Assembly (NCBI RefSeq): GCF_011045215.1
Contig: NZ_CP049202.1
Origin: Escherichia coli
GTDB lineage: Bacteria; Pseudomonadota; Gammaproteobacteria; Enterobacterales; Enterobacteriaceae
Reading direction: 5' to 3' (one strand)
DNA: 64,000 nucleotides
A program made the translations under genes and the position numbers. Below are positions 34,780 through 40,009 of this stretch, one piece after another. Each line of letters starts with the position of its first letter. The first letter of the stretch is position 1. The notes under the pieces are model-generated. The model searched no databases, had not been told where the DNA came from, and saw nothing but the letters and a program-made list of their open reading frames with translations.

Positions 34780-35258
34780 ACTCTGTTCCGGCCCTTTGGG
34801 CCGGGGCGGGGCCGCTTTTCAGTTATGAGGGATGGGCACGGTGTTTCAGAACTGTGTCTGTCGGGGCCCGCCGCTTGCGGTGGGAGGTGCTTTTAAATTC
34901 TGAGCGGCGCGGCTTTGGCCGCTGCAAGCGAAGGCCTTTTTGTATTTGTTCATAGACGTTTCAGAGATAAAGACTTTCCCTGCGGTGGAACAACGCAGGG
35001 GATTAAATGAAGGGGGTAAGACTATATTGCAGGTTTGCTGTTTCAGGTTTGCAGCTTCTTAAAGTTCTTTGTTTGCGGATTTATGTGGATAACTGAAACG
35101 ACGTGGCCACGTTCTGACGACCGGTGAGAGATTTTATGGCCGTGTATGGACGGATGTGGGGATTTCAGGTGGTTACGGGGGATTTCTGGCCGGACAGAAC
35201 CTGCGCCAAAAGCCCCGAAGGGGCTGGCGATGATTCAGTGCTGAAGGAATGGTGTTGT
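34780..35258 (-). other. oriR: IncFII-type vegetative origin region (oriR-like), immediately downstream of repA
   Basis: Position downstream of repA as in R100/R1; GC-rich dyads and DnaA box present. Confidence 0.45.
35084..35092 (-). promoter_or_regulatory. DnaA box (TTATCCACA on minus strand)
   Basis: Exact consensus 9-mer, 167 bp downstream of the repA stop. Confidence 0.5.
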
Positions 35259-36281
35259 CTAGTGCGGTGGCGGGGCAGCCAGCGTCAGTTCAAGCTGACG
35301 CAACTCCCTGATGGCCAGTCGCTTCAGATGGTCATCGGAACAAAAATAGGCTTCATCCGGCGGCAGACGCTTCCTGAGATACTCTGCCATCTCATGAATC
35401 TGCTGGTCGGCAGGCAGTTTCTTCAGGCGATTAGCACGCTTACAGGCTGCAGCTTTCGCCCGACGGTGTTTCAGCGCATCCTGGCTGCGCTGCAGATACC
35501 AGCGTTTTCTGGCCGCATGTACGGAGATATCTTCATCCTCACGCAGTACACCTTCCCGGATGAGCTGCTGGCGGATTTCACTTTCACGCAGCCGCTTCTG
35601 CTGCTGTTCGTGAAGTTTAACCATATCGACGCCCAGCATCTGCCACCCTGCCGGTGTTATCCAGACATAGCGCGGCAGACGCTGGCGGGTTTCACGGTCC
35701 CACATCGTTTCTTCCGACACACCCAGCACACCAAAACGTACCTGTTCGGTCAGCAGACGGGAAAGCCGGGAGACCGTCACTTCCAGTTCCGGAATAACCT
35801 TCCCCTTGCTGTCTTTCGGGCTGATTTCTCTGGCCAGACGGGAAACACTCATGCCTACGGTATGTGTGCCCGCATCACTGAAGCTGACCAGAACCGGCCA
35901 GATGGCATCGAGGAGGCGTTGTTTTTCCGGACGGAAAGCATATTTGCGACCGGCGAACGTCCGTTTCTGCACGTAAAAAGGATGCAGAGACATGTGCATG
36001 CGCAGGCTCTGTTCGCCAGTCACCGGGTCCTTTTTCACCAGGCGGTGATAAGCGTGCCCAAGCTGCCCGCTCAGCGCCTTATAGCGCGCAGGACGATACC
36101 AGGTCGGATTTTCGCATTTGGGTTTAGTGGAGTGCTCACCACGACGACGCTTTGTGCGCTTCCTTTCCGGTTCAACCAGGAAAGTGGTCGCCCTTCCCGC
36201 TTCATAATCTTCCCAGAAACGGATTTGCTCTTCGGGAGGCAACTGAGCCCAGTGGCCTGGACGGGTATTTTTAATCACCAT
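35259..36281 (-). CDS. repA: replication initiator RepA (IncFII RepA superfamily), about 340 aa
   Basis: ATG 36281; internal blocks align with R100 RepA1 ([13 protein letters not shown] / [25 protein letters not shown] / ITRATRALTFLSE); basic C-terminus; oriR and DnaA box downstream. Confidence 0.7.
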
Positions 36282-36804
36282 ACCCACTCCGTAAGACAGC
36301 CAGACGTGCTTCAGTCAGCGCCAACGGAAATATCCCTAAAAACTCAAAAAAACGAGGCGTCAGCGTTATTGTGCAGCGCTTATTGTAAAAATCTGATGAC
36401 GGGGAACAGACTATAAACCCAAAATCTTCTTCCAGTGATTTAATTGCTCTGACAGCTCGCTCAATGGCTAAATGACCATGAGCATTTTTTCTGGCTAATC
36501 CGCAATCAAGTGCAAGTTCGGTTATAGAACGATGCACTTGATTTGAAACAGGATCGTAGTAGAAGCACATGCCTTGCAACAGTGCATCAATAGCTCTGCG
36601 ACGAAGAACGGAAGGCTTGCGTTTACGTTTACCATTAGCGCGCGCGCACGCAGAAGCTATATCGAATGCAAATGTTTCGGTAAACCCCACCGCTTTGCCC
36701 ATTAGCTTCTCACAGAACGGCAGCGTCCTGGCACCTTCACGGGGTGTGAATACCGGATTAGGGTTCTTTACCTGACGGTAATACGTTTGTTGAAGATCAG
36801 TCAC
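36271..36804 (-). CDS. RepA1 N-terminal-domain homologue (about 177 aa), truncated; status (pseudogene versus coupled leader ORF) unresolved
   Basis: [42 protein letters not shown]...[20 protein letters not shown]... closely matches the R100 RepA1 N-terminus as recalled; stop TAA overlaps the repA ATG (ATGGTGATTAA). Confidence 0.5.
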
Positions 36805-36853
36805 ACCATCCTGCACTTACAATGCACAGAAGGAGTGAGCACAGAAAGAAGTC

Positions 36854-36882
36854 TTGAACTTTTCCGGGCATATAACTATACT
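36854..36882 (+). promoter_or_regulatory. sigma70 promoter for copA antisense RNA (-35 TTGAAC, 17-bp spacer, -10 TATACT)
   Basis: Near-consensus hexamers at 36854-36859 and 36877-36882, facing opposite to repA. Confidence 0.5.
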
Positions 36883-36888
36883 CCCCGC

Positions 36889-36981
36889 ATAGCTGAATTG
36901 TTGGCTATACGGTTTTTAGATGGCCCCGGTAATCTTTCTAGCTCGCCAAAGTTAAAGAAGATTATCGGGGTTTTCACTTTT
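36889..36981 (+). ncRNA. copA: CopA-like antisense RNA (replication copy-number control)
   Basis: About 92 nt between the promoter and a U-tract; 13-bp stem CCCCGGUAAUCUU/AAGAUUAUCGGGG with a loop containing CGCCAAA; position between repA2 and repA1 as in IncFII. Confidence 0.55.
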
Positions 36982-37104
36982 CTGGCCCCTGTAAATCCAC
37001 ATCAGAACCAGTTCCCTGCCACCTTATGGTGTGGCCAGCCATAAAATTCCTTAAACGATCAGCAATCTATCACTCACGCCTGAGATAAGCAATAATGTGA
37101 ATAT

Positions 37105-37362
37105 TCACGAAATCGCTCTGCGTTTCAGCTCTGATTCAATCAGTTTTTCAAGCATCTGCGCCTGGGTAATACCTTCCTCATCCGCCAGTTCACTCAGCCT
37201 GTCTTTTAACCGGGCCTGGATAACCGCATGAAAAGCCTTATGAGTGTTGCTTCTGCGAGCCAGAGAAGCTCTTTGTCTCTCTCTGGCCGGAACAGGGTTA
37301 CCTTTCCGGTATGCACGCTTAGTGCCTGATGAGGAAGTCACTGCATTTTCTGTCTGCGGCAT
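37105..37362 (-). CDS. repA2: RepA2/CopB transcriptional repressor of repA
   Basis: 85 aa; [11 protein letters not shown]...[19 protein letters not shown] parallels R100 RepA2; position upstream of copA and repA1. Confidence 0.8.
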
Positions 37363-37432
37363 CTCGCCTCCTCAATACTCAAACAGGGATCGTTTCGCAG
37401 AGGATACTACAGTTTTTTTTAATCAGCGACTT

Positions 37433-37563
37433 GAAAGTTGTGACGATGACATGTGTTGGCGCACAAATCATGTCTGATTACGACCGTTTAATGTGATTTT
37501 GATAATGAAATGACTGAAAAGCAGGAAATGCCTTAACCTGTGTGCCCCCGGGCGGGGCTGGCG
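37433..37563. repeat. about 130-bp direct repeat, copy 1 (repA2 upstream region)
   Basis: About 90 percent identical to 38553-38676; the two copies bracket the GNAT/RHH toxin-antitoxin module. Confidence 0.7.
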
Positions 37564-37669
37564 GCATCAGAGATATGGAAGATAACCTGAGAGGTTATCA
37601 ATTAAAACTTATTAGTGCCCAAGTGTTACATATCATAAAGAAATGATGCCGCAATAAAATTGCTCAGTC

Positions 37670-38152
37670 TCAGACTTTATAAAATAAGGTGTCAGGTGCC
37701 ACAACTGACTGGACAAAACCAAAACGCTCATAAAACGCTCTGGCGTCATCATCAATTGCATGCACCATAACCGCCTTAACGCCAACCTGTTCAGCCACAT
37801 TTACAACCCGGTGAATAGCATCACTCAGCAGCCATTTACCGAAACCATGCCCCTGGGTACAAACATCAACAGCCAGACGCCCTAACAGAACAACAGGAAC
37901 AGGATTAGGCATGTTATGCCGCAAACTGCGCCCAAGCTCGGCATGTGTGACGGAACCCGTAGCTAATGAGTAGAACCCCACAACACGTAAAGTCCCCTCC
38001 AGGCAAATAACGAACGTGCGGGAAGCATTGAGCATCTGGTTTTTCATAGCCCGACCACGTAACCAGTTACTTAGCACCTCATTTCCACAGTCAAATGGCT
38101 GAAGTATATGCTCATCCGTCAGCAATGCCGGCGCGGTGACATTTATTTCCAT
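37670..38152 (-). CDS. GNAT-family acetyltransferase toxin (TacT/KacT/AtaT-like)
   Basis: 160 aa GNAT fold motifs (...LGRLAVDVCTQGHGFGKWLL...); overlaps the upstream RHH antitoxin gene by 10 bp. Confidence 0.75.
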   Translation of the reverse strand: MEINVTAPALLTDEHILQPFDCGNEVLSNWLRGRAMKNQMLNASRTFVICLEGTLRVVGFYSLATGSVTHAELGRSLRHNMPNPVPVVLLGRLAVDVCTQGHGFGKWLLSDAIHRVVNVAEQVGVKAVMVHAIDDDARAFYERFGFVQSVVAPDTLFYKV

Positions 38153-38433
38153 TCAGGCTTTACCGCCATCAGACGTTCACGCCCTTCTGCATTCTGCACA
38201 GGAGCTTCCAGTTGCGTAATAAACGAATCATAACGTTCGTTATCCAGCACAAATAAGCGTTGATCCAGGATAATGTTTTTAGCTTCCTGGTAAGCCAGTT
38301 CAATGATGAAATCAGTACGGTTCTTATTGACCAGGCTCGCAGCATAATCAATAACGGCTCGTTCCTCATCAGTTGCCCGGATGTTAATCTGGTTTTCTCG
38401 CGGTGTTTTACGGACGCTTGCAGCTGTAGACAT
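38143..38433 (-). CDS. DUF1778-type RHH antitoxin (TacA/KacA-like)
   Basis: ATG 38433 with GAGG Shine-Dalgarno; about 96 aa; ...INIRATDEERAVIDYAASL... Confidence 0.7.
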   Translation of the reverse strand: MSTAASVRKTPRENQINIRATDEERAVIDYAASLVNKNRTDFIIELAYQEAKNIILDQRLFVLDNERYDSFITQLEAPVQNAEGRERLMAVKPEWK

Positions 38434-38552
38434 AAAAACCTCAATTGGTAACAATTTGCTATACAATTAATGTTATCGCAAATGGTAACAAAACGCTATA
38501 CAAAATCACTTACGGGAAAAGTGATCACTGATAAAAACAATGACAGAGGCCT

Positions 38553-38676
38553 GAAAATTGTGACGATGATATATGCTGGCGCACAAATCATGTCTGATTA
38601 CGACCGTTTAATGTGATTTCGATAATGAAATAACTGAAAAGCAGGAAATGCCTTAACCTGTGTGCCGGCCCCGGGC
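38553..38676. repeat. about 130-bp direct repeat, copy 2 (upstream of the toxin-antitoxin module)
   Basis: See 37433-37563. Confidence 0.7.
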
Positions 38677-38765
38677 GGGACCGGCTGTTTCCGGCATGTC
38701 GGGTGTCTGCCCCTGAAATACCTCACACTTCCGGAAAGCGGGGACTTCCGTCTCCGCCCGGCAGC

Positions 38766-38915
38766 TTACTTCCGTGCTTCGTAGGCCAGAGTTATCTGCA
38801 CCACTGTATTTCTCCTGTGAATATTCAGCTCACACAACCGTTCCCTGAATATCAGTGAAAAACACAACAACGTGGCGCACACAGCGAGCAACCCTATAAG
38901 GGCATATTTCGTCAT
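38766..38915 (-). CDS. srnB: Hok/Gef/SrnB-family type I toxin (49 aa)
   Basis: MTKYALIGLLAVCATLLCFSLIFRERLCELNIHRRNTVVQITLAYEARK: one transmembrane helix plus conserved LCEL; GAGAGG Shine-Dalgarno; in-frame upstream extension from 38972 resembles a mok/srnB-prime reading frame. Confidence 0.75.
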   Translation of the reverse strand: MTKYALIGLLAVCATLLCFSLIFRERLCELNIHRRNTVVQITLAYEARK

Positions 38916-39260
38916 AAACTTTGACCTCTCTGCAAGGAAGAGGCTACAATCAGTAGTGTTAAGGTACTTCATGCAGACCTCACGAGTTAATGGATTAACG
39001 AGTGGGGTCTTCGCATTTCTGGTACCTGCGTCTTGCCTGAACCAGAAAGGCTCAGACACCCGCAGCGATAATACCACATTCCCGTTTGCCGGCCATGTAC
39101 CTGCATTTTCCGGTTATTATTATAAAAACGCCGGGGACGGGGAAAATTTGCTTTTTCCCGTTTCCGGGGTTGGACAACTGAGCAACGCGAAGGCGTCAGT
39201 TATTTCTGTTTATTACATTCTTCTGTATATTTTCTTTTTACAATTCGACACTGCCTTATC

Positions 39261-39470
39261 TCACCTGACATATGCCCAGACCTCTTTGGGAACTCTGTCA
39301 TATAACCTGTTCATCGTTAATTCAGCAAGACGGTGGTCTGCTGCTGAATTGAAGGCCTCACGCTCACTGTCCGGTAAATCATAGGTGTTCTTACAGATAA
39401 TCTTTTCCAGTGTATTCACCGATGAACACCGCCGTAACTGATATAACCATTCCTGTTTTGTTTTCGCCAT
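39261..39470 (-). CDS. hypothetical protein (69 aa)
   Basis: ORF between the hok-like gene and finO; no family recognised. Confidence 0.3.
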   Translation of the reverse strand: MAKTKQEWLYQLRRCSSVNTLEKIICKNTYDLPDSEREAFNSAADHRLAELTMNRLYDRVPKEVWAYVR

Positions 39471-40009
39471 ATTTATTTCCAGTCAGCATGATAATTATAT
39501 GTATTAAAATTCAACGATACAGTCTTTCATTTAATGACTACACCGCTGTCTTTCGCTACAGTTCCCCCTGCAGCGCCGCTGGCAATGCTCTGCTCTTTGC
39601 AGGGCAGACTGTTGCCACTCTGCCCGGGAAGCCATCTGTGCGGCCCGACGCCACGCTCCGGCAGCCTCTCTCCATCGCCCCCTGACCTCCAGTCTGACCG
39701 CCTGACTCCCGGCTTGCTGATAATTCTGGCTCTGCGCATTTCGTGAACTTCGTCTGAGTCCATTCATTTTTCCTGTCCCCTTTTACCTTTCCCGATACCA
39801 GCGGAATTCAGGATAAACGTTACTTTCTGATTATTTTTTATCTCTTTGTGTCAAAAGTCATTTCGGATATCCAGGATAATACCCCTCATTTAACTTAAGA
39901 ATAAACATGTGTTACTATATCGCTGCGTAACTTTGTTTGAAGTTCATAATAAAAAATCAGGGGTGAACAGGATTTCCTCCATCACGCGATGGAGGATTTT
40001 TTTACTGCT

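Follow-up and report, generated by a model that had tools for sequence, protein, structure and literature searches.

A GmvAT-type toxin-antitoxin cassette between two copies of the hok/sok-repA2 spacer in an IncF plasmid of Escherichia coli

A 64,000-nt stretch of an IncF plasmid of Escherichia coli (contig NZ_CP049202.1), here called the window, contains a toxin-antitoxin (TA) cassette that lies between two direct copies of the spacer separating the hok/sok locus from the replication gene repA2 (copB). Taken together, the comparisons below make it highly probable that a self-contained GmvAT-type cassette entered the hok/sok-repA2 spacer, that its arrival duplicated the spacer once, long ago, and that the inner halves of the two copies have decayed and the cassette has been reassorted since. 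The region from hok to repA2 is 99.8% identical to that of plasmid A of E. coli strain C5 (NZ_CP010123.1). On the minus strand the order is traI, traX and finO, an hha-family gene, hok/sok, the hok-side spacer copy (R2), the antitoxin gene, the toxin gene, the repA2-side spacer copy (R1), repA2/copB, and tap and the rep genes, with CopA on the plus strand (Table 1).

A repeat search between 36000 and 41000 recognized the pair as 37424-37546 and 38544-38666, that is, 123 nt without gaps at 93% identity and with a spacing of 1120 bp. Gapped BLAST extended it to 37424-37562 and 38544-38685 (139 and 142 nt in 142 columns, 90.1% identity, E = 1.4e-51), a similarity far beyond chance, and the same search with each copy revealed no third copy in the window. 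The two copies of about 90% identity that a preliminary description of this DNA had placed on either side of the TA genes (37433-37563 and 38553-38676) are thus real, and fall inside the measured spans, about 9 nt short at each end. Judging from the comparison across plasmids, the original unit probably reached ~37577 and 38699 (~155 nt), and its last 15-35 nt are strongly diverged in the window plasmid. This ancestral unit starts at 38699, the base adjoining the fbi element of hok, and its first element is a GC-rich hairpin that may represent the terminal stem-loop of the hok mRNA; its other end lies 61 bp before the repA2 ATG, and the 61-bp leader that follows is almost invariant among the plasmids compared. 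In locus L019 (E. coli pEC404/03-1, 1329-1417) and similar IncF plasmids, a DUF2726 (yihA-type) gene stands in the place of hok, and of the unit nothing but the repA2-proximal ~76-89 nt is retained. The unit is therefore composite, consisting of a hok 3' trailer of ~60-70 nt and a repA2 upstream segment of ~80 nt. A permissive Rfam scan of 35000-40000 found no known RNA family in the repeat; only CopA and sok were recognized, at their expected places, together with sub-threshold matches elsewhere. Two small open reading frames (ORFs) in the repeat, a plus-strand one (...GAQIMSDYDRLM) and a minus-strand one of 30 codons beginning at an ATG in the repeat, were considered and rejected, since their beginnings or ends fall in flanks that are unrelated, other alleles do not conserve the ATG, and each of the five differences that separate the copies in this stretch is non-synonymous.

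The cassette itself encodes an antitoxin gene upstream of a co-oriented toxin gene, the two overlapping by 10 nt (38143-38152), and it has both the folds and the arrangement of type II systems that pair a GNAT toxin with a ribbon-helix-helix (RHH) antitoxin. The toxin matches Pfam Acetyltransf_7/10/1 and, among known structures, PDB 9ilr_A (E = 7.7e-103), followed by chains of the TacT, ItaT, AtaT and KacT types; the antitoxin matches Pfam TacA1 (E = 4e-19), and PDB 9ilr_B and 7zg6 are among its matches. RefSeq places the antitoxin start at 38445 (100 aa), 12 nt upstream of 38433, where the codon is ATT (Ile) here and ATG in the Shigella virulence plasmid pINV. A start at the ATG at 38433, which has GAGG 5 nt upstream, is more likely. 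Because the toxin and antitoxin are 96% and 98% identical in amino acids to GmvT and GmvA of pINV, and match that characterised system, the module is by its sequence an orthologue of GmvAT, a plasmid-maintenance (post-segregational killing) system of pINV (PMC8923223). At this degree of identity (96-98%), the cassette would be expected to act as an addiction module in the window plasmid as well, its toxin presumably acetylating charged tRNAs and the module stabilising the plasmid.

Cassette DNA was found in 354 plasmids of PLSDB, comprising ~80 Escherichia IncF plasmids (91-99.9% identity), 105 from Shigella (95%) and 160 from Salmonella (~73%). Among 5,426 complete E. coli genomes, 44 carry it, on plasmids only and in no (0) chromosomal place. 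The 2.3-kb region as a whole matches at least 5,000 plasmids, 53 of which cover at least 80% of it; in the typical plasmid match, both flanks are found in the record over a span of ~1,177 bp, about 1,120 bp shorter than in the window. When a synthetic "excised" query, built from another lineage (L004), was used with a coverage cut-off of at least 80%, 1,295 plasmids were recovered, ~54 of them TA-positive, so that hok, spacer and repA2 are contiguous in at least ~1,240 plasmids. Eleven TA-negative loci and ten TA-positive IncF sites were read base by base. All 11 TA-negative loci have one spacer copy, continuous with both flanks, and all ten occupied sites have two, including that of L011, in which Tn3-family DNA has replaced hok. 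The capture of the TA genes with a duplication next to the replicon, suggested in the preliminary description, is borne out by these counts, and the comparison proposed there, with IncF plasmids that lack the module, came out in its favour.

Both the upstream junction (R2 to cassette, 38543/38544) and the downstream junction (cassette to R1, ~37577/37578) are homologous in all of the aligned TA-positive plasmids. The alignment covered plasmids of E. coli, E. albertii and E. marmotae and the upstream side of pINV; Salmonella plasmids that match the whole hok-TA-repA2 region at 89-91% identity lay outside it. A single insertion accompanied by duplication of the spacer is suggested because all ten cassette-bearing IncF sites have two copies with the same junctions. 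Within single plasmids, R1 and R2 are 69-91.5% identical, the pair in the window (90.1%) being among the best preserved, and from this divergence the event would be old.

We propose that the arrival of the cassette duplicated the whole spacer of ~140-155 bp, from the base after the fbi element to 61 bp upstream of the repA2 start, which would have left hok with an intact 3' end (in R2) and repA2 with its native upstream region (in R1). The halves facing the cassette would then have decayed, the outer halves staying similar to single-copy alleles through selection, gene flow or both, and homologous exchange in the conserved flanks would have reassorted the cassette with different repA2 alleles. 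As the route of duplication, we prefer one in which a circle with the cassette and one spacer copy would have been integrated by a single (Campbell-type) crossover. This route presupposes an earlier illegitimate event joining the cassette to a spacer copy; the upstream junction shows microhomology at six of seven positions (CAGCGAC versus CAGAGAC). As in Campbell-type products, the insert lies between direct repeats of a homologous segment and the empty site has one copy. The locus differs from them in that no circular donor is known and in that the copies are 69-91% identical, as would be expected if the event is old.

A discrete unit of ~1.1 kb that occupies one site in some plasmids, is lacking there in others and occurs in several species might also be read as a dedicated TA-carrying mobile element, with the repeats as its ends or recombination sites (a target duplication, an arrangement like that of miniature inverted-repeat transposable elements, or a site of the Xer/dif type). 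However, no transposase or recombinase gene exists between or beside the copies, the repeat search found no inverted repeats, and a duplication of ~140 nt is far from the 2-14 bp typical of transposons and insertion sequences (ISs). The repeats are direct, 140 nt long, and nothing other than the resident spacer, which in empty sites runs without a break into both flanks. They have no Rfam match, and inspection by eye of the conserved repeat blocks gave no convincing match to a dif/cer-like Xer site or to an IHF (integration host factor) site. Moreover, the cassette was never found on a chromosome or at another intact site, and such an element is hardly credible.

The two copies have diverged in a characteristic manner. 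Each half of each copy was compared with its best-matching single-copy allele in nine TA-positive plasmids. In R1, the repA2-side half averages 95.3% identity and the hok-type half 75.8%, the difference being positive in all nine plasmids; in the window, the repA2-proximal ~81 nt are 97.5% identical to single-copy alleles, whereas the hok-type half is 81% identical and has a 3-nt deletion in the hairpin. R2 shows the mirror pattern more weakly, with 86.7% for the inner (repA2-type) half and 92.0% for the outer half (seven of the nine plasmids), and its repA2-type half is down to 80-82% identity in five plasmids. Each copy is thus conserved only where it adjoins its native gene, at the 3' hairpin of hok or upstream of repA2, and decayed where it faces the cassette. 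Two explanations fit this asymmetry: constraint may have been relaxed on the redundant inner halves, or the outer halves may have been refreshed by recombination with TA-less plasmids, a process that is not available to the inner halves.

Several points weigh against a single old duplication followed by decay of the inner halves. Selection and restricted gene flow would produce the same asymmetry, and the data do not separate them. The nine plasmids of the asymmetry test represent three R1 types and two R2 types and are not independent. The copies in the window are closer to the single-copy allele of L015 (93.7% and 92.3%) than to each other (90.1%), so that accelerated decay after the duplication, or a later replacement of alleles, is required. 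In addition, the base-by-base reading covered only ~20 of several thousand sites, and neither a donor context nor a circular form was seen from which the duplicating event could be reconstructed.

The position of each copy, directly upstream of a co-oriented operon, raises the question of whether the repeats are functional regulatory DNA of both operons, with R2 serving the TA genes as R1 serves repA2, so that addiction would be coupled to copy-number control. A precedent for coupling between a TA system and a replicon exists in plasmid R1, in which Kid cleaves the copB mRNA (PMC4344636). The conserved blocks GGCGCACAAATCA and GTTTAATGTGATTT are found in all copies, and the repA2-proximal ~80 nt remain with repA2 where the DUF2726 gene has replaced hok (L019). 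On this last ground, the earlier view that copy 1 doubles as the repA2 promoter region holds in part, in that these ~80 nt may provide upstream promoter context; however, R1 ends 61 bp upstream of the ATG, and the only plausible -10 element (TAGTAT) lies in the 61 bp that were not duplicated. A consensus scan of 37000-39200 found no sigma-70-like site on the minus (transcribed) strand of either copy, and such sites were no commoner than in shuffled sequence; the scan thus gave no position for PcopB.

The suggestion that the TA operon and repA2 share promoter or operator sequences was not supported. The cassette has its own pair of predicted operator motifs, which is invariant in the IncF plasmids, in pINV and in a Salmonella pESI-type homologue. 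The overall identity of this homologue is ~73%, its similarity does not continue upstream beyond the first motif, and it lacks a spacer copy; the predicted promoter/operator is therefore part of the cassette. In R2, the repA2-type half, decayed as it is in five plasmids, is not being maintained, which argues against a role in serving the TA operon, and pINV retains only ~91-95 nt of this copy and yet its GmvAT is functional. A regulatory role of the repeats in both operons is thus very unlikely.

The preliminary description also predicted that recombination between the repeats would cleanly delete the TA genes. The longest perfect block shared by R1 and R2 measures 43 nt in the window plasmid; three other plasmids have 37-44 nt, and five only 11-19 nt. 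RecA-dependent recombination in E. coli has a minimal efficient segment of roughly 25-30 bp, and mismatches are strongly inhibitory to it. Because of the 43-nt block on the one hand and the segment requirement and the effect of mismatches on the other, repeat-mediated excision should be feasible but infrequent in the window plasmid, and very rare in the diverged lineages. Clean deletion by this route is plausible from the structure and was unobserved. No excision product was found among TA-less plasmids, which are at most 93% identical to the flanks of the window and at most 93.6% to those of the L004 lineage; the power of this search is low because a crossover in the shared block joins two well-preserved outer halves and so resembles any single copy. 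In the best TA-less matches (L021 and L022), the single copies are ordinary alleles and not chimeras of R1 and R2. Selection is expected to act against plasmids that lose an addiction module, as is established for post-segregational killing (PMC8923223), and in cells left with only deleted plasmids the toxin should be activated.

These results bear on the reverse history, in which the TA-bearing arrangement is ancestral and the TA-less plasmids are products of deletion between the copies. The crypticity of a crossover in a long shared block, such as the 43 nt of the window, would allow such products to pass as ordinary single copies. However, there are more than 20 TA-less sites for every TA site, and the alleles of the former are diverse (down to 76% in one half) and include types not seen beside the cassette. 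No TA-less plasmid exceeds the 93.6% identity given above to the flanks of either lineage, that of the window or that of L004; in several lineages the copies agree without interruption over no more than 11-13 nt; and the expected counter-selection would act against the loss. Because a duplication would still be required at the origin, and in view of the other points, an ancestral TA-bearing state is unlikely.

With an insertion into the single-copy spacer as the preferred history, the subsequent exchange of cassettes can be followed in the pairwise identities of the repA2, cassette and hok segments, which are incongruent. L009 and L004 have cassettes that are 99.6% identical and repA2 segments that are 82.8% identical, and the repA2 of L009 is 99.4% identical to that of L010. 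Conversely, L011 has a repA2 segment 97.8% identical to that of L004 and a cassette only 91.2% identical, belonging to another clade; the cassette of L010 is itself recombinant. The incongruence thus places the crossover zones in the outer part of R1, which is conserved, and in the invariant leader of repA2. Such shuffling of cassette and repA2 is typical IncF mosaicism. A bolder and rather unlikely extension is that the cassette is an addiction module mobilised by host recombination, which leaves as a circle of gmvAT with one spacer copy and re-enters the hok-repA2 spacer of a co-resident IncF plasmid by a single crossover, and that transcription of the presumably autoregulated TA operon reads through the weak R1 hairpin into repA2-repA, coupling addiction to copy number as kis-kid does in plasmid R1. 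If true, such mobility would explain the reassortment with unrelated repA2 alleles and the origin of the Shigella gmvAT.

In Shigella flexneri plasmid psflex002A (L003, 2990-3985), the pINV gmvAT genes lie between ipaH and ospC2, beside an IS91-family element. This location agrees with the one published for gmvAT, a region that has copies of IS1294 at its boundaries (PMC8923223). On the upstream side, the same cassette junction is followed by ~91-95 nt of R2 and then by the end of a multi-copy IS91-like element, ISSbo1. Downstream, the module is interrupted ~7-14 bp past the toxin stop codon by a sequence that can be read as an IS3-family-like end. Because the upstream junction and a part of R2 are kept and both sides are cut by IS-like ends, the pINV locus is apparently a remnant of the hok-TA-repA2 arrangement of IncF plasmids, trimmed by ISs. 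The two systems are alike in their proteins, in their operator and in the upstream junction to a spacer copy, and the toxin structure 9ilr is near-identical. They differ in that GmvAT of pINV is an IS-bounded fragment far from the replicon, whereas the module in the window is intact, has both spacer copies and lies directly upstream of repA2. No description of this replicon-adjacent, spacer-flanked form, or of the derivation of the Shigella gmvAT from it, was found in the literature searched.

The window module shares with TacAT, AtaRT, KacAT and ItaRT the overlapping antitoxin-then-toxin genes, the GNAT fold and a TacA-type domain (7ak8, 5fvj, 7f36, 6ajn and 5zgn are among the PDB relatives). 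These systems are, however, mostly chromosomal, and the window proteins are distant in sequence from most of them (E from 1e-44 down to 1e-17). It also resembles kis-kid (parD) of plasmid R1, another type II system adjoining an IncFII-type copB-copA-repA replicon (PMC4344636, PMC5717011). The toxin of kis-kid is of a different family (an RNase), and coupling through cleavage of the copB mRNA has been demonstrated there, whereas such coupling in the window plasmid would be hypothetical.

The TA system was already known, and its spacer-flanked arrangement is an incremental result of comparative genomics. With it, GmvAT, which together with two other systems maintains the virulence plasmid of Shigella, acquires a concrete evolutionary home. 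The replicon-adjacent cassette circulates at low frequency, in less than 1% of complete E. coli genomes, among IncF plasmids of E. coli, E. albertii, E. marmotae and Salmonella. The duplicated spacer is a natural example of non-coding DNA in which each copy has kept the half that serves its neighbouring gene, and the pattern of decay delimits the part of the spacer that belongs to hok (the 3' hairpin) and the part that belongs to repA2 (the upstream ~80 nt). The locus is also a recombination junction, relevant to annotation and to the typing of plasmids, at which TA and replicon alleles are shuffled. The current understanding of TA systems and of IncF replication is unchanged, and the locus is a well-documented but unsurprising case of IncF mosaicism.

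Table 1. Coordinates of the features in and around the duplicated hok/sok-repA2 spacer (positions in the 64,000-nt window)
Feature	Position	Strand	Remarks
CopA antisense RNA	36889-36979	plus	Rfam, 97.5 bits
repA2/copB, replication regulatory protein, 85 aa	37105-37362	minus	NF010256, E = 5e-39
Non-duplicated 61-bp repA2 leader, candidate core promoter	37363-37423	minus	TAGTAT and GAGGAGG Shine-Dalgarno sequence; putative promoter role
R1, repA2-side spacer copy	37424-37562		weak homology on to ~37577
Unique, non-duplicated TA cassette, ~981 bp	37563-38543	minus	3' untranslated region (UTR) with hairpin, toxin, antitoxin, operator, ~40 nt upstream to junction J1 (38543/38544)
Small hairpin GATAACC-TCTCA-GGTTATC	37581-37599	minus	3' end of the cassette, just inside the R1 junction
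GNAT-fold acetyltransferase toxin, 160 aa	37670-38152	minus	GmvT orthologue by sequence
DUF1778/TacA-type (RHH) antitoxin, 96 aa	38143-38433	minus	from ATG at 38433; GmvA orthologue by sequence
Predicted cassette promoter/operator	38442-38503		two 25-nt direct repeats, 38442-38466 and 38479-38503, each TGTATAGC-N5-TGTTACCA
R2, hok-side spacer copy	38544-38685		homology to the ancestral unit up to 38699, directly 3' of the hok fbi element
GC-rich hairpin in R2	38664-38685		
hok coding sequence and 3' trailer	38700-38915	minus	including predicted fbi element
hok-family toxin coding sequence	38766-38915	minus	RefSeq Hok/Gef annotation; NCBIfam Hok matches below curated cutoffs
sok match	38905-39061		Rfam, 94.3 bits
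hha-family gene	39261-39470	minus	

The neighbouring loci are of familiar types. The hok/sok locus has the features of a type I toxin-antitoxin system, namely a Hok peptide, a sok region and a predicted tac/fbi fold-back. In the predicted folding of the hok mRNA, CGGGUGUCUG near the 5' end (~39053-39062) pairs with CAGACACCCG (38700-38709) over 10 bp on the minus strand, and the transcript region folds far better than shuffled sequence (z = -7.3). The hairpins of the hok trailer and of the cassette may both mark RNA 3' ends. The latter shows one compensatory pair, AU to GC, between TA clades, the sequences being non-independent. One TA clade (L005, L010 and L011) has a 3' UTR shorter by 25 nt, the missing stretch lying between the toxin stop codon and this hairpin, and carries the change on both sides of that pair.

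The control region of the replicon is of the IncFII type, with repA2 and CopA recognized in the window and with tap and RepA annotated in the 99.8%-identical record of E. coli C5 plasmid A. The similarity of a 181-aa ORF (36271-36816, minus strand) to IncFII RepA models is confined to their N-terminal ~160-170 residues, and a complete 342-aa Rep (35259-36287, minus strand), which overlaps it by 17 nt, matches NF040977 from end to end. This two-part initiator layout is also annotated in E. coli C5 plasmid A and in E. albertii p1RM10705, the MOB-suite type of the latter being IncFIC/IncFII plus IncI-gamma/K1. The initiator region (35259-36816) looks like a chimeric replicon in which an IncFII control region drives a second Rep gene. 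Between hha and finO, a sub-threshold Rfam match to AS-pc02 (antisense to pHK01_099) was recognized at 39480-39658 on the plus strand, with 32.5 bits (E = 2.5e-5), the gathering score being 40.

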